Source: Longimicrobiales bacterium
GTDB lineage: Bacteria > Gemmatimonadota > Gemmatimonadetes > Longimicrobiales > Gaopeijiaceae
NCBI GenBank assembly: GCA_965116905.1
Contig: OZ220732.1
Span: forward strand, 800,001 to 864,000
DNA: 64,000 nt
Direction of reading: 5' to 3'
The notes under the pieces were generated by a model. It worked only from the letters and a program-made list of their open reading frames with translations. It was not told the origin of the DNA and did not search any database. The translations under genes and the position numbers were made by a program. Below, piece by piece: positions 1,182-14,600 of this stretch (position 1 is its first letter; every line of letters begins with the position of its first letter).

Positions 1182-1805
1182 TCACCCTCCGGGTATAGTG
1201 CGAACCCTCTCCGGCAGGCTCGTGCACGCTGCCGCGCGAACGGGACCGATTCGTCGGACCAACTCCTGCATCCTGTCAGGAGGAACGACCTGCATCTTGG
1301 CATCTCGCAATGCACGGAAGATCGCATCGGCCTGGCCGGTTTCTCCGAGCCCATCCGTCACCCGACCGTGGAGCAGTACATCGGCTGTCGATGCAAGTCG
1401 CAGTCCCGGGAATCGCTCGGCGCAGATCCGCCTCGCCTTGCGTTCGTCAATCAGTGCGACGGCGTCGCGCCCTACAGCATAGGCGATCGTCGCGGCCTCG
1501 CCGTCGTCCAGGGTCTCCTGGGCCTCGCCCTCCACAAGCGACCGGTAGACAGGTTCGTCGCTCCGCTGCAGCTCCACCGGGTCGATGGACCCGTCGACGA
1601 TCAGCGCTTCGAGCCCCTCCCAGGATCCGTGCCCCCGCCCTCTGCCTTCCCACAGCTCGCGGCGAACGTTGGTCGTCGCCAGAAAGCGATTCGGGAACGC
1701 ATCGACGATTTCGGACGCCGTCCGCGTCGCGACGAGATTGATAATCACGCTTGCGTCGGTTACGACCGGGGCGCCCGGGTCACCCAGGAAGCTTGACGAT
1801 GTCAT
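1182..1805 (-). CDS. PIN-domain nuclease (toxin-like)
   Basis: Acidic PIN residues in VVTDASVIINL, RREL, LDDGEAATIAYA and LIDERKARR. ATG at 1805 overlaps the 3' end of the XRE-peptidase gene. Confidence 0.8.
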   Translation of the reverse strand: MTSSSFLGDPGAPVVTDASVIINLVATRTASEIVDAFPNRFLATTNVRRELWEGRGRGHGSWEGLEALIVDGSIDPVELQRSDEPVYRSLVEGEAQETLDDGEAATIAYAVGRDAVALIDERKARRICAERFPGLRLASTADVLLHGRVTDGLGETGQADAIFRALRDAKMQVVPPDRMQELVRRIGPVRAAACTSLPERVRTIPGG

Positions 1806-2955
1806 CCGCCTCGCTCCTCTCGGTCTCTGCTCCCTCGAGGAGATCTCGCACTTCAAGCCTATGGAGCCTGAGCATCCGGGCCAGCTGTCCTTCGCTGTAG
1901 TACCCTTTCTTCCACGCTTCGCGGACCAGTAGCGCCAGGCGTCGTGGGACGTGGTCAGTGCGCGACGCTGGATCCTCGGCTCGATGGGAGGTGCCCAGGA
2001 CCTGCTCCGCCTGCCGGTCGGTGATGCCCCCGTGCGACTGGAACCAGTCCCACGTGCCGCGTCGGGCGAGATCGAGCTCCTCGAGGCGGCGCACCATGGC
2101 TTCGCGCGAGACGGTGAACCGGTCGGCCAGAAGGATTACGTGGCGTCGAGTCAGGTGCGAATGCCCGGCCGTCAGCTCTTCAAAACGCAGCTTCACGGCG
2201 CGTGCCGGGGTCAGGAAGGCGCGCGCGAAGTGGTCCGCGTACCGCTCTTCACGAGAGTGGGGGCTGTCGTCCCGCCTGAGGACGTTCGGCTCATGACGGG
2301 TCGATGTTAAGTGTCCGAGCTCGTGACCAGCGGTATAGGCGCGGCGGCTGGCAGGGTGGTTGGCGTTCAGGAGGACGCACGCCCCCACTGCGGCGTCGTG
2401 GGCGAACAGTCCCGAGATGCGGCTGCCCAGAGGTCGCACGTACACGCGGATGCCGAGGTCCAGCTCCATGACCGAGACGATGTCCCTGACCGGGCCGAAT
2501 CCGAGGCCGAGCCAGACACGCAGCTCCTGTGCGTCGTGCTCCGCCTGGGAGCGGACGTTGCCGGGCAGGAGGGGTCGGACGCGCGGGAAATTCCGGTGTC
2601 GGGCTACGCCCAAGGCATTCTCCAACTCCACCTCGGCGCTGACGAGGTCCGTCAACAGCCGGGCCGCCTGCTCGGTGCCGTCGTCCGCGCAGCGCGCCAC
2701 GCTTCGGAACTGGGGAACGAGATCTATGTGGACGGCCTCCCGCCGCAGAATCGCGTTCGCCGAGGTGCCGTAGCGAATCGCGAGCGCCTGTAGCTCGTGC
2801 GTGCGGACGCGCCGCTTCCCCTGTTCGATTGCGACCAGGGTGGTGCGGGCGACATCGATCGCGGCGGCTGCTTTGGCCTGGGTGAGCTCGGCTGTCTTCC
2901 GGGCAATCTGGAGGCGCTCGCCGATGGTGCGGTCCGTCAACCTTTCAGTTCTCAT
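1780..2955 (-). CDS. XRE-family HTH + ImmA/IrrE (DUF955, M78) metallopeptidase fusion
   Basis: N-terminal HTH (IGERLQIARKTAELTQAKAAAAIDVARTTLVAIEQGKR). C-terminal HEXXH (GHELGH) followed by EERYADHFARAFL. Confidence 0.9.
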   Translation of the reverse strand: MRTERLTDRTIGERLQIARKTAELTQAKAAAAIDVARTTLVAIEQGKRRVRTHELQALAIRYGTSANAILRREAVHIDLVPQFRSVARCADDGTEQAARLLTDLVSAEVELENALGVARHRNFPRVRPLLPGNVRSQAEHDAQELRVWLGLGFGPVRDIVSVMELDLGIRVYVRPLGSRISGLFAHDAAVGACVLLNANHPASRRAYTAGHELGHLTSTRHEPNVLRRDDSPHSREERYADHFARAFLTPARAVKLRFEELTAGHSHLTRRHVILLADRFTVSREAMVRRLEELDLARRGTWDWFQSHGGITDRQAEQVLGTSHRAEDPASRTDHVPRRLALLVREAWKKGYYSEGQLARMLRLHRLEVRDLLEGAETERSEADDIVKLPG

Positions 2956-2963
2956 CGATCGCT

Positions 2964-4307
2964 TCACACCCATTGCTTGACGAATGAGGTTGGCCCCAGC
3001 GAGTTCAGGAAGTCCTGCCATTCATCCGCGTGCCGCTCTAAGAGCTGCACCATCCGCCCCTCGATGTCCTCGACGCCCTCGATTACGCGACCGAGGGATT
3101 TCGCGTGGCGCCTCACGATCGGCCGCACATCGCCATCGGCCATGGCGGCGAGGTCGGCCATGTGTCGAGTTCCGGCGATGGCGTAGTCCCGGTAGGCACC
3201 ATTGGGGTGCTGGAAGTCCGGATCAACTGCGGTCTCCAGCGTGCTCGCGTTCATGTCAGTGCAGATGTAGCTCTCAGGATCTTCGGTGAGACCAGCCGCG
3301 TGCACGCTGACCCTTCTCAGCATACACGCGGCGCACACCCCGCAGTGGCGCCACGACCGGCGGACGGAACTCCAGCGGTTGTCCTTCCAACAGGATTTGG
3401 TGGACGGCCACCTGTCGTCGCCGGTGGCGACATAGCTAGCGAGCGTCTCCCCCTTGGTGTGCCAGAGGCGCGGGAAGCGGTAGCGGATGGGCTGTTCGAA
3501 GAGCGCTTCCAGAAACTGCTCCATGCGATGCATGAACTCCGGATGGTTGCGGTAGTCGGGGTGTGCGTGCCCCACGGTCACGAGCGGTGGACCCAGGCTG
3601 CCCTGACCGCTCTCGGGCACGATGACCCTGTTCGCGCGGGTCAGGTACGCGGCGATTCCGGCAGTGGTCGCAAACTTGAACCCGCGGCTCATGGCGCTTG
3701 GCTCGGAGCGTCGGGGGACCCGCACCCGGTAGGGAATCGACACAAATGGCTCCCCGTTGCGGGTCATTGCGCGTGGCCTCCGACCCAGACGCACCCGTAC
3801 CACTTCCTCCCCCAGACTTGCCTTGGCGAGCGCGGCGACCGCGAGCGAGTCCATGCCCTCGCTGTAGGCAAGGACCGCTCTCGAGGGCGGGAACAGAGCG
3901 AATCGATCTCCCTCAGGCTCCTGAATCGGGCTCTCTCTCTGGTGGAAATCGACTGACCAGCGGTCACCTGTGACGAGCCTGAGCGCCTCCAGCAAGGCTT
4001 CCTTCACCGGTGGAGCCCGCCAACGATCAGGGTCATCTACGGGCACGCGAATCGACAGGCGCCGAGTCCATCCACGCGGCGGCCGTCGGCACGACAGGTC
4101 CGCGAACTCCACGCTTGCCGCCACGAGCATAGCGTCGCCCACTACCGGCTCCCAAGGCGAAAAGGCGTACGACTCGAGGGCTGTCGTTGAGAAGCGGATA
4201 TGCCGGCCGAGCTCGCATTGGAGCCAGCCGTCCTGTTGCGGGCCTTCAGGCTCGCAGACGGAGACTCGCGCCTCGGCACGCGCCGCGCCGGTTGCCGACC
4301 GGTTCAC
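2964..4307 (-). CDS. QueC-family (QatC/Cap9-like) PP-loop enzyme
   Basis: QatC-type N-terminal domain (DAMLVAASVEFAD...GWTRRLSIRVPVDDPDRW...LVTGDRWSVDF), variant PP-loop YSEGMDS, TKGE and a Zn cluster SCW-x-HCGVCAAC. At 447 aa it is far longer than housekeeping QueC. Confidence 0.85.
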   Translation of the reverse strand: MNRSATGAARAEARVSVCEPEGPQQDGWLQCELGRHIRFSTTALESYAFSPWEPVVGDAMLVAASVEFADLSCRRPPRGWTRRLSIRVPVDDPDRWRAPPVKEALLEALRLVTGDRWSVDFHQRESPIQEPEGDRFALFPPSRAVLAYSEGMDSLAVAALAKASLGEEVVRVRLGRRPRAMTRNGEPFVSIPYRVRVPRRSEPSAMSRGFKFATTAGIAAYLTRANRVIVPESGQGSLGPPLVTVGHAHPDYRNHPEFMHRMEQFLEALFEQPIRYRFPRLWHTKGETLASYVATGDDRWPSTKSCWKDNRWSSVRRSWRHCGVCAACMLRRVSVHAAGLTEDPESYICTDMNASTLETAVDPDFQHPNGAYRDYAIAGTRHMADLAAMADGDVRPIVRRHAKSLGRVIEGVEDIEGRMVQLLERHADEWQDFLNSLGPTSFVKQWV

Positions 4308-4864
4308 AGTTGCGGCCCCTCGTCGATTCCGTCGCGCATGACCGGGCTACGGGCCGGTGCCGGGGATCCGGAATCGTCAACGATTTGGGAAGCCAGACCT
4401 CGGACATCGACCGCTTGGCAAGCCTCGGTGAAGCGCCCACTGACACGACCCCAAGGGAACCAGGTCTTCCTCAGGTAGTGCTCTTTGGTGGAGCGTGAGT
4501 TGTCGAGGAGGCACTCGTGAAGCGTGTCGGCGACCGCCGACTCCACCATGTCACGTCCCGACGACGCACTGGCGTCCTGCTGGCTCAGGTAGGTAAGGAA
4601 CGTCTGGGCGGTCTTCGAGCCCGAATGCTCCTGTCGGAGGGCCTCGATCGCCCTAGCGAGGTCGGGCGCGAAGAGGGTGCGTTGGCCGTTGGGTGCCAAG
4701 ATGCGTACGATTGCCTTGAGAGGCAGTTCGCGAGCTTCCTTCAGGAGCGCGGCATCCATTGCCTCAGTGACCTCCCCGGGCGAGAAAGCCCGGATTTCCA
4801 GCCGCTTCGCGACTTGCTTCCAACGCTTCCCGAGCGGCAGGCTCTTCCAAGGGCCATCGCTCAC
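4304..4864 (-). CDS. Hypothetical helical protein, first gene of the QueC-like operon (positional analogue of QatB)
   Basis: GTG start with a GGAGG RBS. 186 aa, MSDGPWKSLPL...DGIDEGPQL. Its stop overlaps the QueC-like start (GTGA, 4304-4307). Confidence 0.75.
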   Translation of the reverse strand: MSDGPWKSLPLGKRWKQVAKRLEIRAFSPGEVTEAMDAALLKEARELPLKAIVRILAPNGQRTLFAPDLARAIEALRQEHSGSKTAQTFLTYLSQQDASASSGRDMVESAVADTLHECLLDNSRSTKEHYLRKTWFPWGRVSGRFTEACQAVDVRGLASQIVDDSGSPAPARSPVMRDGIDEGPQL

Positions 4865-5044: not shown

Positions 5045-8000
5045 CTACGCTTCCGTTCCCGCCCTCCGATTCGTCACCGTCGGCTCCGTCGCCAGCATGG
5101 ACCGCCACCCGGCCACCGTCTCCGCGCTTACATCAAGCGCGGCCGCCGCAGCCTCGTCGAGGACCCGGCGAGCTTCGCACCGTTCCGCCTCACGCATGGG
5201 CAGGAGCTCCACGTCCCGCACCTGCTGCCACGCGTCGGCGAGCGCGTCCCAAGCCGGGTTGTCTGGGGTCGGCACGCGGACTTCACGGAGGTGGTGCAGC
5301 TGCCAAGTTGGGTAGGTCAGCGTCTTCGCCCGTCGATTGAGCAGCATGAGCCGGACTGGGGTGCTGTTCCACCAAGCCGCCAGCGCCTGACCCTGCCGAT
5401 CGCAATCCACGGCGACGGGAACCCACCAGCCGAAGGCCGGCGAGGTCGCCCACAGTGCGTTCACCCGGCCGGTGACCGTATTCATCCGCATGGCGACCAG
5501 CAGCCTGCTCCGCTGTCCGGCGTAGCGTTCAGCCAGCCCCTCCTTGCCTGGGCGGGGCACGTAGCCGACGTCCGGCTCTTCGCGCACCTTGCGCCGCAGC
5601 TTGCTGCTCACGGAGTGATAACCGGGGAGCGATCCCCGGGCATCGGGTTCCGCGACTTTGTAGGCGTCCTGAATGCGTTGTCCCGCCGGGCCGACTGCGT
5701 GGTCGCTCCCGAGGGGTTGCAGGCGCGGCGACGCTTCGACCTGCCGGACGACGTCGGCCAAGGCACCGTTGAACCACTGTACCGGCGTCCAGTCCCCCGC
5801 TTCGACACGGTCGCTTGGCCACTCCGTGACGCGGGCCCACTTGGTCGGCTCGCCAGCCAAGATCGCATCCGCGGCGGCGACGGCCTCCTCAGGCGTGGAC
5901 GGCATCCGGCGAAGCGAGACGAACTGGGTTGGCGGGCGGGTGTTTCCGTGCCAGCGGCGAGCGACCAGCAGGCACTCGTGGATGCTGGTGTTATCGGAGA
6001 AGTTGATGTGGCGCGGATCGTGGGAGGTGACGATGCGCTCGATGTGGAAGCGGCGGGCCAGGAATCTGCGTTCGGCGACGCCGGCTGGACCGGTGCAGCC
6101 AGTGCTCGGGACGACTTTCGCCAAGATTCCTTGACCGCCAAGGAGTCGGTCCGCCAGTGGCGAAAAATAGGTGCTGACGCTATTGGAGTTGATCACTCCT
6201 AAGACTTCGTCGTCCGATTGCTCTACCGAATCCCGAATCCGCAGCTCGTGTTCCTGCATCCGCCTAACGGTGTCTCTCCCGAACTGCCGGTTGCGCTGTT
6301 TGTTGTTCGTGAACGGTGGGTTCATCAGGACCAGATCCAGGTCCTTCAGCGGGTACTCCGCGTCCGCAGCGCTGTCGACGTGATGCGCCGCGAGCCCGGC
6401 CATGGTCCGCAAGGGCCGGATCAGCGTGTGCAGCGAATCCTCCCGGTCGGTCGCACCCAGAATGTCAAGCGACCCCGCCCTCACGCTCCCGTCCGGCTGC
6501 GGCCCGTGCTTTAGGGTGAGCAGGTTCATCCGCCGGTAGTCGACCGTCGGAGCACCAAGCGTCAAGTTACAGGCCGCCAGCTGAACGGCCGTTCGGTTCA
6601 CGTCCAACCCGCAGAGCACGTTTTCGACCAGTAGACGGTGCAGCTTGTCGGAATCGTCCAGGCCATGCCCATTGTCGTCGTCCGCCCCTGCCTCTTCGAC
6701 TCGCTTCTTGATCACATGCAGCGCGGCCATTAGCAGTGTCCCGGTCCCGCACGCAGGGTCCATGATCCGCAGCCGCGACACCTCTTCCGGGTCGCTCCAG
6801 TCGCGGAGGTCCGGGCCGAGGGCGAGCCGCGCCAGCATGAGCGCCGACAGGTTGTTCGTGTAGAAGGCCCCGTAGGCGGTCGCGTCGGGGAGGATGCGGT
6901 GATAAAGCGGGCCGGCGTGGTCGTACCCCAGCGCACTCAGAGAGTCGGCCACTCTATTCGCGCACTCGGCGAGGATGCGCAGCGCGTGACCCGCCCAGCG
7001 TCGATCGGGAATCACGTCCAGCACGGCCAGCGGAGGTTCGAACACCGGCGCGTAGTCGCGTTTCAGGATCGCCTCCCAGGCAGCGCGCAGAACGACCGCT
7101 GGCTTGTCGGCGCCGCCGACCTGATTGAGCTTGGCGATCCCCTCCATGGTCGGCACTTCGCCCAGTCGCCGGTGCAGTAGACAGGCGTTGGCCAAGAGCA
7201 GCGCGGCGATGGTGCAGATGTTGCGGTCGCCCGCTTCCGAAGGAAGGCCGAGCGCGGAAGCGACATCGCCCGCCAGCTCCCCTTCCAGGAACAGTCGCGC
7301 GGCCGCGCGCACGGCGTGCTCGATGTCCTGCGACACTTGGAGGCCGGGTTTACCAAGACCTGAGGCGGCCACGACGTGCGCGTAAACGCCTTGGCTGACG
7401 TCCGCCAACTTGAGGTCGGGTTGAGTGACCGGCTCAGGTGGATCCGGGCCCACGGGGGGCGGATCCGGTCCATCGTAGGCCCGCACGAACCGCGCCGGGT
7501 CCTCCGCCAGCCGGCCGTCGTGCGACTGGAGTGCGCGCAGCACCTTGCCCACCGCGCGATAGCCGTCCGTCCCCGCCGCCAGCGCCGAAACCAGATCCGC
7601 GCCCGGCTCGATCGGAATGGGCACTACGATGTACCCGAGGCGCTTGCCGGGGCTCTTTCGCATCACCCGGCCCACCGCCTGGACGATGTCCACCTGACTC
7701 TGGCGCGGCTCCATGAAGACGATCGCGTCGAGAGACGGCACGTCCACGCCCTCAGTGAACAGACCGACATTGAACAGCACCCGCGCGACCTTCTGGACGT
7801 CCGCCTTCGCCAAGTCGCGCAGCGCCTGATTCCGCGTGAGCGCGCTGTCGGAGGCGTCCAGATGTTGTGCGTTGACAGGCAGAGACGCCTCCGCGTCTGC
7901 GTCGTCCTTCCGCAACCGGCGAGTGGTGATGCGGCGGAGCTCCGGGAGCTTCATGCCCTCAGCGTAGAAGCTTGAACGGGCAATGGAGTTGGAGAACGCA

Positions 8001-9496
8001 ATCGTGCGGTGGAGGCGTCCGGGTCCTTCCTCTTCGGAGCCCTCGGTCACGCCGTTGATGGCGAGCGAGGTGCCCAAGAGGCGGATGACGTCCTGCGAAG
8101 TGACCACCAAAGGCTTGCCGCGAGCGACCTCCCGATCTTCCCCGAGGGATATCAGCTGACTGGTGACGCCCGCGGGAGCCCGGTCTTCGTGTATCCCCAG
8201 CACGATGACCCGGTAGTCCGACAGCATCCCCGCGTTGACCGCCTTGGAGAAGGACAGCGTGTGGAGTTCTGGGCCGTACACGTCCAGGTCGCCCATGTCG
8301 ACCGTCTCGATGCCCTTGGTCTTGAGCGCAGTGCGCGACGAGGCCGTGTAGATCCGCGGGGTAGCGGTCATGTAGAGGCGCTTGGACGATTGCAGCGTAT
8401 CACCGTGCACTGCCCGAAAGCCGCTTAGCTCCTTCGTCTTTCCGTTCTTCGATTCCACAGTGGTGACGCCGGTGGTGCGGTGCGCCTCGTCCATCAACGC
8501 CAAGTCGAAAGCGGGCGCGCCATGTGTCGCTTGAGCAGCCATCACGTGGCGTAGCGACTGGTAGGTGGAGAAGACCACGCGGGTGCGTTCGCCCTCGGGA
8601 TTCGTCAGCATCGCCGCGAGCGCCTTCGCGTCCGACGTGACCGCGCACTCAAGCTCGGACAGCCCGATGTCGTTCCTGGACTCGCCCCTGCCGCCCGCCG
8701 TGTAGTCTGAACAGACCACGCGGCTGTCGAGCTTCCTCGTCGTGTGCCGGAGCCATTCGCGCCGCGCCTGGGATACCAGCGCGATCGATGGCGCGACGAA
8801 GAGAATCCGTCCCCCATTAGGCACCATCCGCTCGGCGATCCGCAGCGAGGTGAACGTCTTGCCGGTCCCGCAGGCCATGATCAGGCGTCCGCGGTCGTGG
8901 TTGGCAAGCCCTTCAACTACGTCTTCGATGGCCTCAGCCTGGAGCGGCCAAGGATCTCGCACCGGCCGGGTCGCGACCTCCTCGGCAATGGCGTCATCCC
9001 CGTGCCGCTGGAAGTCGATCCGCCGGACTGCCGGAGTCAGCGCCTCGATCTGCACCTCGGCGGTCTTGGTCCACGGACACGTCGCGACGATCCACCGCAT
9101 GGCAAAGACCGGCCTGTTCCCGCCTCCTCCAATCTGCGACGAGGCCAAAAAGGAGTCGATGTGGCCCTTGCCCACGCGCGCCTTCGCATCGTAGCACTTG
9201 CATTGGATGGCGATCCAGCTGCCGTCGGCGTGCTCCGCCACCAAATCGATGCCGATGTCGTTCCCGCCGAGCCCGGTCACCTCCACCCGCTCCGGCCAAT
9301 CCGCCCAGCGGTGCACCTGGACGACCTCGTACTCGGGGTTCTCCATGAGCACACGGCAGACCAAGTTCTCGAACCAGCGGCCCTTCTCGGATTCGTCGCG
9401 GCTCTGGCGGCGAATCCGATCAAGGACATCGCTGACGGTGGTCTCTCCCGCTCGGAGGCCGAGGGGGAGTTGGTAACCGCGCGGTTCGCCCTTCAC
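5045..9496 (-). CDS. Type ISP-like single-polypeptide restriction-modification enzyme (Mrr-like nuclease + SF2 helicase + amino-MTase + TRD)
   Basis: GIDLVA...AIQCKCY (Mrr-cat), MACGTGKT (Walker A), DEAH, TAT, QAVGRVMR (motif VI), DPACGTGT (SAM binding) and NPPF (amino-methyltransferase catalytic motif). Confidence 0.88.
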   Translation of the reverse strand: MKGEPRGYQLPLGLRAGETTVSDVLDRIRRQSRDESEKGRWFENLVCRVLMENPEYEVVQVHRWADWPERVEVTGLGGNDIGIDLVAEHADGSWIAIQCKCYDAKARVGKGHIDSFLASSQIGGGGNRPVFAMRWIVATCPWTKTAEVQIEALTPAVRRIDFQRHGDDAIAEEVATRPVRDPWPLQAEAIEDVVEGLANHDRGRLIMACGTGKTFTSLRIAERMVPNGGRILFVAPSIALVSQARREWLRHTTRKLDSRVVCSDYTAGGRGESRNDIGLSELECAVTSDAKALAAMLTNPEGERTRVVFSTYQSLRHVMAAQATHGAPAFDLALMDEAHRTTGVTTVESKNGKTKELSGFRAVHGDTLQSSKRLYMTATPRIYTASSRTALKTKGIETVDMGDLDVYGPELHTLSFSKAVNAGMLSDYRVIVLGIHEDRAPAGVTSQLISLGEDREVARGKPLVVTSQDVIRLLGTSLAINGVTEGSEEEGPGRLHRTIAFSNSIARSSFYAEGMKLPELRRITTRRLRKDDADAEASLPVNAQHLDASDSALTRNQALRDLAKADVQKVARVLFNVGLFTEGVDVPSLDAIVFMEPRQSQVDIVQAVGRVMRKSPGKRLGYIVVPIPIEPGADLVSALAAGTDGYRAVGKVLRALQSHDGRLAEDPARFVRAYDGPDPPPVGPDPPEPVTQPDLKLADVSQGVYAHVVAASGLGKPGLQVSQDIEHAVRAAARLFLEGELAGDVASALGLPSEAGDRNICTIAALLLANACLLHRRLGEVPTMEGIAKLNQVGGADKPAVVLRAAWEAILKRDYAPVFEPPLAVLDVIPDRRWAGHALRILAECANRVADSLSALGYDHAGPLYHRILPDATAYGAFYTNNLSALMLARLALGPDLRDWSDPEEVSRLRIMDPACGTGTLLMAALHVIKKRVEEAGADDDNGHGLDDSDKLHRLLVENVLCGLDVNRTAVQLAACNLTLGAPTVDYRRMNLLTLKHGPQPDGSVRAGSLDILGATDREDSLHTLIRPLRTMAGLAAHHVDSAADAEYPLKDLDLVLMNPPFTNNKQRNRQFGRDTVRRMQEHELRIRDSVEQSDDEVLGVINSNSVSTYFSPLADRLLGGQGILAKVVPSTGCTGPAGVAERRFLARRFHIERIVTSHDPRHINFSDNTSIHECLLVARRWHGNTRPPTQFVSLRRMPSTPEEAVAAADAILAGEPTKWARVTEWPSDRVEAGDWTPVQWFNGALADVVRQVEASPRLQPLGSDHAVGPAGQRIQDAYKVAEPDARGSLPGYHSVSSKLRRKVREEPDVGYVPRPGKEGLAERYAGQRSRLLVAMRMNTVTGRVNALWATSPAFGWWVPVAVDCDRQGQALAAWWNSTPVRLMLLNRRAKTLTYPTWQLHHLREVRVPTPDNPAWDALADAWQQVRDVELLPMREAERCEARRVLDEAAAAALDVSAETVAGWRSMLATEPTVTNRRAGTEA

Positions 9497-9543: not shown

Positions 9544-10179
9544 CTACGCGATCTCGAACAGACTACGGAACCACAGTACGAACCTCCGGGCGGCGTCGCT
9601 GTCGTCGCGAAGATAGTGGGCTTTGATAGCCAAACCGTAAGGACGACCCGGCTCTTCCTGCCAAGCCAGCCAAGTGTGGAGGACTGCTTTCTTGGCGGAG
9701 ACCAAAGGGAACAGCGCGCCCAGCTCTTGGGCCGTACTGGTCGAGTCCTCAGCATGAGGAAGTAGCTGATCCTCGCCGTCGATAAGGTCTTCCAGAAAAT
9801 CCTCCAATGCACCGGTGCGCCGATTGTCCGGCATGAGCCACACCCCAACACGCGTGCCGAACTCGCTGGACTCGCCTATGAAGCCGCCTGTTGGAATCTT
9901 GCGTGGAGCCTCAACACCCACGCTTTGCAGCCGCGAGCGCACCCCATTCCAGGTGGCCTTTAGATCGGCATTCGCATCCAGAACGAAGGCCAGCGATCTT
10001 CCGGTTCCCGCGCGAATGGAAACCGTTATCGCACGGAGAACCCCTGACTTGCCCTTCGCATCCACGAGTTCCGGGATGGACTGCGAGTCGACTCCTTGTC
10101 GGAGAAGTAGCTGGCCGATCACATGCTCGTCGTCCTTGCCCTCCAGGTACGCCGCATTGCCCGTCGCGAATTCAACCAT
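9544..10179 (-). CDS. DUF3226-like / TOPRIM-like partner of the ATPase
   Basis: YLEGKDD, FVLDAN, VWLMPDN...GALEDFL, KAVLHTWLAWQEEPG. Start coupled to the ATPase stop (TGATG). Confidence 0.75.
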   Translation of the reverse strand: MVEFATGNAAYLEGKDDEHVIGQLLLRQGVDSQSIPELVDAKGKSGVLRAITVSIRAGTGRSLAFVLDANADLKATWNGVRSRLQSVGVEAPRKIPTGGFIGESSEFGTRVGVWLMPDNRRTGALEDFLEDLIDGEDQLLPHAEDSTSTAQELGALFPLVSAKKAVLHTWLAWQEEPGRPYGLAIKAHYLRDDSDAARRFVLWFRSLFEIA

Positions 10180-11258
10180 CAGCGCATTTCGATGCTCAAG
10201 TCAGCCGCTGTAACAATGGCCTCCGGATCAAAACTCACGCTGCTGTCGAGTTGTCGCTCGATCTTCTGAACCGACACCACTTCGGCGAGATCCTGACGGG
10301 CCCTAAGCAGGGCCGCCAAGCCATTGATGCAGTCCAAGCTGTGAGTAGTTGCGAATACTTGAATTGAGGATGCTAGCGCCGCATCAACGACGAGTTTCCA
10401 CATTTCCTCCATTACGGTCCAATGCAGGCCGGTGTCAATTTCGTCGATCAGAAGAAACCCGTCTGCGGAACGCACCAAGGACAAAGCGAGCGCGAGAAGT
10501 CGCCGCATCCCGTCGCCGTAGCTCCCGATTGGAGCACGGGGAGAACCTGCCTGGAAGCCCAAGACGATGCCCCCCGTGCGCCCCGCGCCCTCGCCAGTCA
10601 GGAAGTGGATCGAATCAAGGTCCGCTTGGAGGATCCTCATTGCACTGACTACCTCAGACTCACGGCCTGCGACGAGAACCTGATCCCACAGATCAGCCAT
10701 TTCACGGGGGCGCAACGACTCGGCCGTAACGAATTGGATGGGAAGCGACTTCAGCCGCCATGGCCGACCTTCCCGATGCCTCAGCGCCGCTGGCGGCCAG
10801 TCCAGGGAGCCGTCTTCCCTCAGGGGCAGCTTAAGGTGCTCATGTCCTTTTCCGCGTTGGATTAGCAACGCCAAGGGGTGAAGATCGGCTGTGGGCAGGT
10901 CAAACAGGTCATGGGATTCATCCGCCCACCCTTCCACGATTTGAATTGCTACACGTCCAAGACCCTCGGCAGAAGACACGCTCAGGCGGCTACCGAGTCC
11001 GATCCTGTGGCCGCGGAACTGGTGATAGACGGGGTACCGCAACTTGCGACCGCCCGAGGTAACGTGGGATTCGCTCCGTCGCCTCATAGGCGCGACCACA
11101 GCGGTAGGATCGCCGCGAGACGCGAGCAACTCGACGGCCTCCAAGACAGAGGTCTTCCCACAATTGTTGGCGCCTACCAACAGGTTGACCTTCGCCAGGT
11201 CGCGGAGTTCGTACTCCTTGAAGCTGCGGTAGTTTTCCAATCTGAGCGTACGGATCAT
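10179..11258 (-). CDS. ABC-type ATPase (AAA_15/AAA_21 family)
   Basis: MIRTLRLENYRSF, Walker A GANNCGKT, signature-like SYGDGMRR, Walker B/D-loop LLIDEIDTGLH and H-loop ATTHS. Confidence 0.9.
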   Translation of the reverse strand: MIRTLRLENYRSFKEYELRDLAKVNLLVGANNCGKTSVLEAVELLASRGDPTAVVAPMRRRSESHVTSGGRKLRYPVYHQFRGHRIGLGSRLSVSSAEGLGRVAIQIVEGWADESHDLFDLPTADLHPLALLIQRGKGHEHLKLPLREDGSLDWPPAALRHREGRPWRLKSLPIQFVTAESLRPREMADLWDQVLVAGRESEVVSAMRILQADLDSIHFLTGEGAGRTGGIVLGFQAGSPRAPIGSYGDGMRRLLALALSLVRSADGFLLIDEIDTGLHWTVMEEMWKLVVDAALASSIQVFATTHSLDCINGLAALLRARQDLAEVVSVQKIERQLDSSVSFDPEAIVTAADLSIEMR

Positions 11259-11367
11259 CCCCCATAGCCCCTGTGCGCTGGAACAGGCCACCGACTGGGT
11301 AGTCGATGCTCGGCTACCAAGGTGCCATTGTGGCCGATTCGTCGCCAGTTTCAAGCCGCATCCACCC

Positions 11368-11486
11368 CAACCCTAACGTTACGTCAGGATCCCATTCAAT
11401 CTCCTCGACGACCGGAGCGTCTCCCCCAACTCCCCCACCACCTGATCCCCCCTCCCCCCTCAACCCTAACGTAACGTCAGGGTCCC
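11368..11486. repeat. Two 26-bp direct repeats, each with an imperfect palindrome
   Basis: CAACCCTAACGTTACGTCAGGATCCC (11368-11393) and CAACCCTAACGTAACGTCAGGGTCCC (11461-11486), 24/26 identical. Confidence 0.85.
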
Positions 11487-11615
11487 CAACCGACTCTCCC
11501 ATAGCCACCCTGGGCGCCTCCACCACGATCTCCTCCACCCCCATCCCCCTCAACACGGCCTCGACCTCACGCCGCTCTCCCACCCCACGCTCACCGCCAC
11601 CCCCCGCGACCTCGC

Positions 11616-14600
11616 TCACGACACCATACCCCCATCTCCCCCCGGCACGATTTCGTCCTGTCCGAGCTCCCTCAACCTCGCATTCACCTCTGCCAGTTCT
11701 TCGCTCCACACCCCCTCCAGCTCCCCCACCAACCCCCTCAACCTCTCCACCATGATCTCGAACACGGCGTACATCCCGCTCCCGGGCCGCCCATCCCCGC
11801 GCTCCGACATCGACAGCAGGTTGGCCAGGCGGTTGTTCACCTTGATCGGGAAGTTCAGGGGGTCCTGGTTCGACCGGTTCCGCACCTGGTAGATCTCGCC
11901 CTCCACGGCCGACGCCGCCCTCCGCAAGCGCTCCGCCGCCTCGATCAGCGTTTTATCATCGGTCGCCTCCGCCAGGCGCTCCTCCAGCTGCGCCTTCACG
12001 TCGCGGATCGCGATCACGGCCCGGTTGGCCTCGTCGACCTTGTCCCGGATCCGGACCCCGAACTCGTACTGGGCCTGCAGGTCCTCGACCGTGACGTCGG
12101 TGATCCAGGGGTGCGGCACGACCACCACCTGGGACCGGCTCACGTGGTCGCCCATCGTCAGGCGCACCGTGTACACCCCCGGCGGCACCGCGGGCGCCAT
12201 CGTGCGCACGCCCCAGAGGATCATGCCGGGGAACGTCGTCGCCGGATCCGTGCGCAGATCCCACCGCAGTCGCTGCAGCCCGGATCCGGTGGGGAGCGCC
12301 GGTCCGGCCCACCGGTCCCGCTCCACGCCCTCTTCCGCAGGCTCGAAGGTGCGCACCACATCGCCGGTGGCGTCGATGATTTCCAGCCTGGCATCGGCCG
12401 CGCTCCCACCCCCATCTCCCACCCACCACGACAGCACCACGCCATTCGCGGACCGGTACGCCAGGGCCGGGGTGAACAGGACCAGGTCGCGGAGGGTCGT
12501 GGTCGCGTCGAGCTGGCGCAGCGGGGCGATGTTGTCGAGCGACCAGAAGCCGCGGCCGTGGCTGGCCATGGCCAGTTCGTCGTGCTCGGGGATCACGTCG
12601 GTGATGGGGATGTCGGGAAGGCCGGGGTTGAGCTCCTGCCACCACTCGCCGTCATCGAACGAGATGTAGACGCCATGGTTGGTTCCGGCATAGAGCAGGC
12701 CCTCGCGGGCGGGGTCCCCGCGGATCGAATTGACGTAGGCGTCGTCGCGCATGCCGTTCGTGATCCGGGTCCACGTCTGGCCGAAGTCGTCCGTCTTCCA
12801 GATGTGCGGGCGGAAGTCGTCGAGCAGGGCGAGGCGGGCGGACACGTAGGCTTTTGCGTCGTCGAAGGACGAGGCGTCGATCAGGCTGACGCGGCCGAAG
12901 TCGGGCATGTCGGGGGGCGTCACGTCGGTCCAGTTGGCGCCGCCGTCGGTGGTTACGTGCACGAGCCCGTCGTCCGATCCGGTCCAGATGATGTCGGTGT
13001 CGCGCTTGCCCGGCCCGACCGAGAAGATGGTCGCGTAGACCTCGGGGCCGTTCATGTCGCCGGTGATGGGGCCGCCGGAGTGGCCGAGCGTCATGGGGTC
13101 GGCGCGGGTCAGATCGGGGCTCAGCGCCTCCCAGTTGGTGCCGCCGTCGGTGGTGCGCCAGAGCCGGTTGGACGAGGCGTACAGGATATTCGGATCGACG
13201 GGCGAGAAAATGATCGGAAAGGTCCATTGCCAGCGCTCGACCATGTCGCTGGCGGGCTCGCCGGAGTAGAACCAGGGGTAGGGATTGACCTCGCGCGAGG
13301 TGCCCAGGCGCCGGTTGAACCTGTCGATGTAGCGGCCGTTGTTGGTGCCCGAGAAGAAGACGTCGAGGTCCTTCGGATCGGGCGCGATGTAGCCGGGCTC
13401 GCCGCCGCCGGCCCGGTAGTGGGCGTCCATCGAGCCGGCGGTGATCGCGGGGGCGCGGGCGGCTGTGGGGACTCCGTTGTGGTCGTGGGCGTCGGAGGGG
13501 TCGCGGTCGGTGGCGTCGGCGGGGTCGGCGGCGGCGGCGTCGGCCGCGTCGTCGTCGGCGTCCCCGTTGTCCATTGCCGCGGCCCAGGCCTGCTCGAAGC
13601 GCCCGGCGTTCCAGTCGGACGGCAGGCAGAGGGTGCTGTTGTCCTGCTGCGAGCCGCAGATGTGCCACGGGATGTGCGCGGTCGTGACGCCGTGGTAGAA
13701 CTGCGCGGTGGAAAACTCCTGGTCGGTCCACTCGCTGCCGGTGGTGAAGCTGACCGCGCCGCCGCCGTCGTTGGCGACCACGACGTGCGCGGGGTCGTCG
13801 GGATCGATCCAGAAGTCGTGGAAGTCGCCGTGGGTGCCGTTGTTGATGACTTCGTACGTCGCGCCGCCGTCGGTCGAGCGGAAGAACGACGTGTTCTGCA
13901 CGTAGACGACGTCCTCGTCGTGATGGTCGGCGAACACGTGCGTGTAGTAGAACGCGCGCTGCCGGATCCGCCGCTCGTCGTTGATGAGCTCCCAGGTGTC
14001 GCCCCCGTCGTCGCTCCGGAAGAGCCCGCCGTCGTCGTGCTCGAAGAGGGCGTAGACGCGGTTGGAATTCGCGGTCGACACCGCCAGGCCGATCTTGCCG
14101 ACGACGCCTTCCTGCGGCATGCCCGGGTTGCGGGTGATCTCGGTCCACGTGTCCCCGCCGTCGACCGATTTGAACATGCCGCTGCCCGGCCCGCCGGAGG
14201 ACATCGTATACTCCTTGCGGAAGGCCTCCCACATCGCCGCGTAGATCACGTCCGGGTTGTTGCGGTCGATCGCGATGTCGATCGCGCCGGTCCGCTCGTC
14301 GCGGAAGAGGATTTTCGTCCAGGTGTCGCCGCCGTCGGTGGAGCGGAAGACGCCGCGTTCCTCGCTGGGCACCCCGTATTTCCCGAACGACGCGACGTAG
14401 ACAATGGCCGGATCGGTCGGATGGATCCGGATCGTGGAGATGCCGTGCGACTCGGAAAAGCCGACGTGCTCCCAGGTGGCCCCGGCGTCGCGGCTGCGGT
14501 AGACCCCGTCGCCCGGCAGGATGTTGCCCCGGATGCACGTCTCGCCCATGCCGATGAAGACGAGGTCGGGGTCGGTTTCGGCCACCGCCACCGCGCCCAC

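Follow-up and report, generated by a model that had tools for sequence, protein, structure and literature searches.

The 64,000-nucleotide stretch of Longimicrobiales contig OZ220732.1 analysed here (the window) carries on its minus strand a cassette of four genes, A to D, in which a QueC-like enzyme and a small partner protein precede a protease and a putative nuclease. The question raised by this locus is whether the four genes form one system and, if so, whether that system is a known one. Gene A (4864-4304) starts with GTG and encodes a protein of 186 amino acids with an MSDGP N-terminus; gene B (4307-2964) encodes a QatC-like PP-loop ATP pyrophosphatase of 447 amino acids; gene C (2955-1780) encodes an XRE-type helix-turn-helix (HTH) domain fused to an ImmA/IrrE (M78) Zn-peptidase (391 amino acids from ATG); and gene D (1805-1182) encodes a predicted PIN-type nuclease (207 amino acids from ATG). 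The first-pass annotation had described four co-directional, tightly packed genes, and the coordinates, the GTGA overlap of A and B, the 8-bp gap between B and C and the 26-bp overlap of C and D are all borne out. It had also pointed to the absence of an ATPase, TatD and CD-NTase. The open reading frame (ORF) list of the window and comparisons with Pfam, PADLOC and NCBIfam models, the same models against which proteins A to D were compared, indeed revealed no KAP ATPase, TatD or CD-NTase adjacent to the cassette, and at homologous loci the four genes lie directly next to one another, no other gene being inserted. Taken together, the results described below indicate that A to D constitute a single operon, mobile and inherited together across distant bacteria, and that this operon is apparently a variant of QueC-family immunity, as yet undescribed, that has a family of partner proteins and an operator of its own.

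Homologous loci were collected from genomes, metagenomes and plasmids. A genome search seeded with A gave 12 loci, 11 of which contain a full A (10 from Gemmatimonadota and one from an alphaproteobacterium); all 11 have ABCD in order, with B frameshifted in L006. For the metagenome set, B was used as the seed and the best 80 of 446 confirmed stretches were analysed; they were counted without dereplication, and it was from these loci, with the window proteins as seeds, that the profiles of C and D were made. Where the stretch was long enough on the relevant side or sides of the seed gene (with room), A was present in 66/66, C in 67/67 and D in 61/61 loci, and all 53 loci with room on both sides contain the four genes in order. 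Searching plasmids with B retrieved 56 records, 25 of them full-length at 34-50% identity, and ABCD was found in all 12 of these 25 that were retrieved (A is split in L018). The 11 weaker matches retrieved out of 31 comprised nine qat-type loci, one unannotated locus and one of another kind. The reverse plasmid search with C (E<=1e-20) returned 25 records, identical to the 25 of B, and a search with D returned the same 25 plus one orphan (26). Thus the four-gene order, whose conservation had been suggested as a test of the first-pass annotation, holds in metagenome, plasmid and genome loci alike, and the QueC pair and the XRE-PIN pair, whose rare co-occurrence would have spoken against it, share the same plasmid records in a fixed order. 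The pairwise identities of A, B, C and D also correlate across 67 distinct intact loci (73 before dereplication), with rho of 0.71-0.83 and 0/499 permutations reaching these values, host kinship inflating rho. It is almost certain that genes A to D form a single unit.

The distribution of this unit is patchy. A was found in 6/37 genomes of the genus and in 0/24 other relatives, while, judging by source names, A and B also occur in Chloroflexota bins, and B in addition in Nitrobacter, Bradyrhizobium and Mesorhizobium. Twenty of the 25 plasmids are predicted to be conjugative or mobilizable. Viral contigs gave no match for A or for C, and B gave only one divergent locus, L105.

Several loci depart from the common arrangement. 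The twelfth genome locus (L012:7950-9860) is a deletion derivative in which the operator and the first 18 codons of A are fused directly to an intact-looking C-D, the remainder of A and the entire B being missing. The viral locus (L105:7351-11023), which adjoins a type I HsdM-like gene, has the four-slot layout of the cassette with different parts, namely a 195-amino-acid ORF without detectable kinship to A, a divergent QatC-like gene with the loop TTKGCHP, an XRE-ImmA gene and a PIN-like gene. It may represent a second lineage or an independent assembly of the same architecture; a search of viral contigs with L105 recovered only L105 itself. Other QueC-like matches within the genus were either ordinary qatABCD loci (L112 and L113) or a variant in genome G034 (L111:5166-7783), where a 257-amino-acid partner of no known family accompanies a 616-amino-acid QueC-like protein with a long C-terminal addition; no qatA/qatD or C-D matches were found at L111. 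[quoted passage not shown]

Protein B had been described as a QueC/QatC-like enzyme, and it matches both Pfam QueC (E 9.4e-9) and PADLOC QatC (E 3.9e-34). It resembles QatC along its length: HHalign aligned it with QatC at 99.9% over 303 columns, and the top Foldseek match was QatC (9y01_B, E 4.6e-16, TM 0.64). The score against the NCBIfam QatC model (NF041925) is 118.6 bits, under the cut-off of 280. A housekeeping QueC was rejected as an identity for B, since B has 447 residues versus ~220, scores 28.9 bits against canonical QueC (TIGR00364, cut-off 150.3) and does not show the YxQxHxxE / VPxRN motifs of canonical QueC (PMC13329287). No queD or queE was seen beside B in the annotated plasmid loci or the homologous loci. 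The window copy has the PP-loop S149-E-G-M-D-S154, the substrate loop H249-P-D251-Y-R253-N-H-P and predicted Zn cysteines C306/C322/C325/C328. The four cysteines are kept among homologues, and the PP-loop S-x-G-[ML]-D-S is present in 66/67 proteins. The substrate loop of B reads x-x-D-Y-R-[NS]-H-P versus S-T-R-T-T-H-P in QatC, so that D-x-R stands at the T-x-T positions of QatC in all 67 B proteins; a Y-x-D reminiscent of the QueC YPDCR occurs in 57/67, its register being ambiguous. A quick tree of 49 rows put 35 B proteins on their own branch (Shimodaira-Hasegawa-like approximate likelihood ratio 100), apart from 11 QatC. Judged from these sequences, B is a clade separate from QatC.

No Pfam, PADLOC or NCBIfam model matched protein A with E under 0.01. 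A profile search retrieved 823 clusters at 50% identity (E<=0.001). In an alignment that retained 136 of 147 matches by length, 130 of the 136 proteins start with M[S/T]DGP, and W15, E128, H129, R132 and R144 are conserved in at least 92%. The tail is also conserved. In the alignment it ends in the motif G-[LIV]-D-x-G (G[LIV]DxG[PV]xL), with G183 at 100% and D181 at 91%. Of 78 distinct proteins from the loci, 71 have the motif, and in 70 it is separated from the stop by 3-4 residues. The DNA of this motif overlaps the ribosome-binding region of B, with GGA/GGG in 57/71; a mere ribosome-binding-site effect is therefore partly possible as an explanation, yet the motif is encoded by mixed synonymous codons. 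The structure model of A is all-helical with a predicted local distance difference test score (pLDDT) of 89.8, and the last 20 residues are flexible (tail pLDDT 60-64).

Searches for a relationship between A and QatB gave no clear match. HHalign gave 2.4% against an 8-sequence QatB profile, no PADLOC match to QatB was found among 133 A members and none in a PDB sequence search. Foldseek returned nothing at E<=0.001, though a QatBC entry was in the library; the best VIA-align hit (Z 7.7, root-mean-square deviation 6.0, 107 aligned residues) was no clear structural match, and the ESM Atlas held no usable match. Kinship of A and QatB was thus not detected by sequence or structure searches; these results are compatible with a remote kinship and do not imply a new fold.

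Pairwise modelling of complexes had been proposed in the first-pass annotation, and A is predicted to bind B with a model score of 0.85, the best of three controls reaching 0.00. This level is attained by 116/157 solved complexes and by 2/215 mismatched pairs. Between runs, at least 75% of the contacts are shared, and the partner pLDDT is 77 or more. Confident contacts on B lie in the loop 243-250 and in the C-terminal extension 373-404, and those on A in residues 5-13, 81-95 and 113-138, including the conserved R124, E128 and R132. QatC binds QatB via the equivalent loop and extension (PMC13279940), and A is predicted in our model to dock on B surfaces equivalent to those that QatC uses for QatB. 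The C-terminal tail of A makes no confident contact. We consider A the likely substrate of B, with Ser2/Thr2 as the predicted acceptor.

How, then, does the cassette relate to known systems? With qatABCD it shares the three-part fold of QatC (PDB 9Y01/9Y02), in which the enzyme is extended at both its N- and C-terminus and carries an SxGxDS loop as well as four cysteines. It also shares a partner gene directly upstream; the all-helical product of this gene begins with conserved small residues and should, according to the model, dock on that loop and extension of the enzyme which QatC uses. It differs in lacking QatA (KAP NTPase) and QatD (TatD), since C-D directly follow B in every locus with room and the annotated plasmid cassette loci show no qatA/qatD. 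B differs in forming a separate clade, under the NCBIfam QatC cut-off, in which D-x-R replaces T-x-T. A starts with M[S/T]DGP and has a short tail, whereas QatB starts with MGTS (8/8 QatB) and has a tail of 30-90 residues; A has no detectable QatB similarity, and the cassette adds C, D and an operator. The likeness to type IV CBASS (Cap9-CdnD, PDB 9NTO) lies in a QueC-family enzyme that acylates the N-terminal amine of its partner, as is predicted for B, and in the Y-x-D of most B proteins. However, family scans of A, C and D and the annotated loci revealed no CD-NTase or TGT-like Cap10, Cap9 is a minimal core of ~185 amino acids compared with ~450 for B, and the acceptor is Gly versus the predicted Ser/Thr of A.

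Protein C, with its fused HTH and HExxH preceding a PIN-type gene, resembles the XRE-COG2856 plus PIN module, RmrA of RosmerTA and CapH-CapP, the latter pair controlling defence operons transcriptionally. The combination of an XRE-COG2856 fusion with a PIN gene was predicted long ago to be a toxin-antitoxin pair (PMC2701414), but in the cassette C and D accompany a QueC-like enzyme together with the partner of that enzyme, as third and fourth genes of the operon that they likely control; the HTH and peptidase fused in C are split in CapH/CapP, and D matches no RmrT model. D matches five PADLOC models of PDC-S70, a candidate single-gene system, but weakly, and it belongs to a four-gene unit. 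A survey of the QueC family discusses ten clusters, none of which, in the text consulted, has the neighbourhood of the cassette, and only about a third of the genes in its QatC cluster lie beside qatA/qatD (PMC13329287); B may be hidden inside that cluster. No description of the four-gene unit was found in the literature outside subscription journals and supplements, and its listing as an unnamed candidate is possible. The statement that no named system has this composition therefore stands in so far as no described system matched, the cassette being neither qatABCD nor type IV CBASS.

The assignment of C as an XRE-ImmA protease agrees with its matches to Pfam HTH_3/HTH_31 and Peptidase_M78, with HELGH at 211-215. 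The PADLOC models RmrA (E 3.2e-25) and capP (E 3.4e-16) were also matched, and HExxH is kept in 82/82 C proteins. D has no Pfam match; its best PDC-S70 match is at E 1e-8, and no RmrT model was matched at E<=0.1 in PADLOC. Its acidic residues D17, E50, D100, D101, E103, D120 and E121 are kept by 95% or more of the 80 aligned rows, and one homologue is annotated as a PIN domain protein. An intact orphan D homologue occurs on a Microvirga plasmid (L126:4953-5588), where neither A, B and C nor the operator was found within 5 kb of it. In two loci, C has a stop (L057) or a frameshift (L072) beside an apparently whole D, both of which may be assembly errors. The orphan D and the broken C genes weigh against a strict C-D toxin-antitoxin pair.

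The cassette had been credited with its own promoter. A promoter and predicted operator occupy 4934-4898 on the minus strand. The promoter, TTGACA-17-TAGGAT at 4934-4906 (-35 box 4934-4929, -10 box 4911-4906), taken alone amounts to one site versus 0.5 +/- 0.8 in shuffles, but the site is conserved across homologous loci. A palindrome, TGACA-N-TGTCA at 4933-4923, overlaps the -35 box, and a third half-site, CTGACA, lies at 4903-4898. The consensus upstream of A reads TTGACATTGTCA, followed by ~20 nt of AT-rich DNA and then cTGACAT. TGACA-N-TGTCA with at most one mismatch was found in 74/76 distinct upstream regions, exactly in 59, and the third TGACA follows 19-20 nt beyond the palindrome in 70 of 76; among random control windows, 10 of ~5000 matched. 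The two regions that fail lack the spacer base. The left arm of the operator coincides with the -35 box, while the right arm and the third site are not promoter consensus. TGACA.TGTC was not found at seven qat loci or at L111. In the 4.2-Mb host genome of the window (G000), only two exact palindromes exist and the full three-site arrangement occurs once, and a host-wide regulon was therefore rejected. The only other exact TGACA-N-TGTCA (G000:C1:1618331) forms part of a larger palindrome, upstream of an ORF that looks secreted, and lacks a third half-site. Within the cassette only C is a DNA-binding protein, and hence it likely binds the operator half-sites, with autorepression as the natural reading. 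The conserved operator thus offers a concrete route by which C would control the whole operon, and C is predicted to act as autorepressor and sensor.

The cassette lies in a defence island, as first annotated, between a HEPN gene (155-1006, from Pfam/PADLOC scans) and a type IIG restriction-modification-like (helicase-methylase) gene (5045-9496), followed by a PDC-M38A/B pair (9544-11354). ORFs resembling DUF262, IS21, Vsr and cytosine methylase, judged by eye, lie upstream of the window (G000:C1:786000-801000), and a stretch of low complexity (window 11306-11709), strongly skewed in GC and encoding a repeated peptide, separates the island from the first housekeeping gene. Enrichment near defence genes, another test proposed at the outset, was assessed at 30 of 43 homologous loci using the 106 nearest of 209 picked flanking ORFs, with families classified by us. 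Defence or toxin-antitoxin Pfam neighbours (restriction-modification, Abi, HEPN, RES, SIR2, Fic, HipA, Piwi, STAND or similar) occur at 21/30 loci, compared with 0/37 ORFs in the 15-63 kb part of the window, one DUF433 aside, this control not being matched. By annotation, 8 of the 10 annotated plasmid loci have defence-type neighbours, one reverse transcriptase included. Flanking genes differ among loci, and an integrase flanks only 1/30.

A defence role of the cassette is very probable, and it may well be an inducible anti-phage operon in which C represses, B modifies A and D arrests the infected cell. The HTH of C would bind the TGACA half-sites, which cover both the -35 box and the start of transcription, repressing the shared promoter. 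Infection would be signalled to the HExxH domain, for example by single-stranded DNA as happens with CapP, and the peptidase so activated would cleave C itself, so that the operon is derepressed. A would dock on the C-terminal extension and substrate loop of B, as QatB does on QatC, and after removal of Met the amine of Ser2 is predicted to attack a B-adenylated acid, most likely 7-carboxy-7-deazaguanine (CDG), because 57/67 B proteins keep a QueC/Cap9-like Y-x-D. In the weakest step, modified A-B would license or supplement D, which would cut RNA and abort the infection; a direct link from A modification to D can be proposed only tentatively. More speculative still, and on balance doubtful, is a third architecture of QueC-family protein-modification immunity, in which a new QatC-sister enzyme would acylate the N-terminal Ser of a new helical protein and so switch a protease-gated PIN nuclease; the acyl donor might even be the acidic motif at the C-terminus of the helical protein itself (head-to-tail ligation).

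A supply of CDG in the host is plausible, because G000 has a QueE-like gene (G000:C1:896258-896914; E 2.4e-23, below the cut-off) and a PTPS/QueD-family gene (4142014-4142412), besides a TGT gene (3976284-3977369). No QueF and no canonical QueC were found in G000, where a second weak QueC match reads as an asparagine-synthase-like protein, nor was a full-length QueC found in the 36 congeners searched.

Several observations weigh against the proposed modification and its output. The host PTPS carries Cx5HGH, which we take to be a PTPS-II rather than a QueD signature. In the register of the QatC papers, D251-x-R253, not Y-x-D, aligns with the T-x-T of QatC, and the window's own B has His249 at the Tyr position. 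Gly2 is conserved in QatB and CdnD and G2D abolishes qat defence, where A has Ser/Thr; moreover, two residues precede the Gly-Pro of A versus about seven in QatB. Residues 2-4 of A are not among the confident contacts in the A-B model, whose high score may reflect the likeness of B to solved QatC, because the QatB-QatC structure has already been solved. The orphan D and the broken C genes beside D fit poorly with a constitutively lethal toxin. In two of three QatBC structure studies, no CDG was bound to QatC (PMC13279940, PMC13639016).

Among the alternatives, the one that survives best, although we think it rather unlikely, is that A-B are the whole defensive unit, like QatBC, and that C-D are a regulator and addiction module that retains the cassette and turns it on, the modification not being functionally linked to the PIN protein. 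QatBC alone defends (PMC13279940, PMC13639016), protecting against lambda-vir (PMC13279940), so that D need not be the effector, and the predicted toxin-antitoxin pairing of XRE-COG2856 and PIN points the same way. L012, which keeps the operator, the A stub and C-D after loss of A-B, also suits this alternative, as does L105, where a different QatC-like gene and an unrelated partner precede XRE-ImmA and PIN-like genes, so that C-D may act as a transferable control unit. Against this, the C-D clade is almost never found without A-B (25/25 plasmid records for C), A-B never occur without C where there is room (67/67), and the orphan D in L126 argues against strict addiction.

It is improbable that the operon, rather than being directed against phages, is a module of the kind of ImmR/ImmA or IrrE, inducible by damage and serving either the stress response or the maintenance of a plasmid or island. 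The cassette is common on mobile DNA, as the predicted mobility of 20/25 plasmids indicates, ImmA cleaves ImmR to control ICEBs1 (PMC2701414), and addiction modules cluster in defence islands too. But the nearest characterised homologues (QatC, RmrA and CapP) all act in anti-phage systems, and the flanking genes vary by locus, with an integrase at 1/30.

Self-ligation of A, in which B would adenylate Asp181 or the terminal carboxyl and the amine of Ser2 would attack it to give cyclic or polymeric A with no small-molecule base, is hardly probable either. PP-loop lasso cyclases perform comparable chemistry. Both ends of A are conserved at the protein level with mixed synonymous codons, the tail motif lies close to the stop in 70/78 proteins in a flexible tail, and the genus is without canonical QueC and G000 without QueF. 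The first substrate of QatC was left unidentified (PMC13376578). However, the tail has no confident contact in the A-B model, its motif overlaps the B ribosome-binding region, the last residue of A varies, Y-x-D is kept in 57/67 B proteins, and an NDG peptide was reported at low level on QatB (PMC13639016). Finally, that A-B and C-D are unrelated and adjacent by chance has next to no probability: XRE-ImmA-PIN pairs are common alone (PMC2701414) and C-D (L012) and D (L126) exist without A-B, but the co-occurrence counts, the order of genes, which is the same in Gemmatimonadota and Alphaproteobacteria wherever a locus has room, the reciprocal searches, the co-varying identities and the shared operator rule such a juxtaposition out.

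The mechanism by which QatB-QatC block phages and the first substrate of QatC are called open in the 2026 structure papers. The cassette is an independent and widespread version, with 823 partner clusters, that has a different pocket and Ser instead of Gly as acceptor, and it includes candidates for an effector and for a built-in switch; these features make the chemistry and the output directly testable. Copies are carried on plasmids of cultured, harmless Alphaproteobacteria, where they currently bear the label '7-cyano-7-deazaguanine synthase', a misleading annotation. The tightly conserved operator, in turn, provides a ready assay for the inducing signal.

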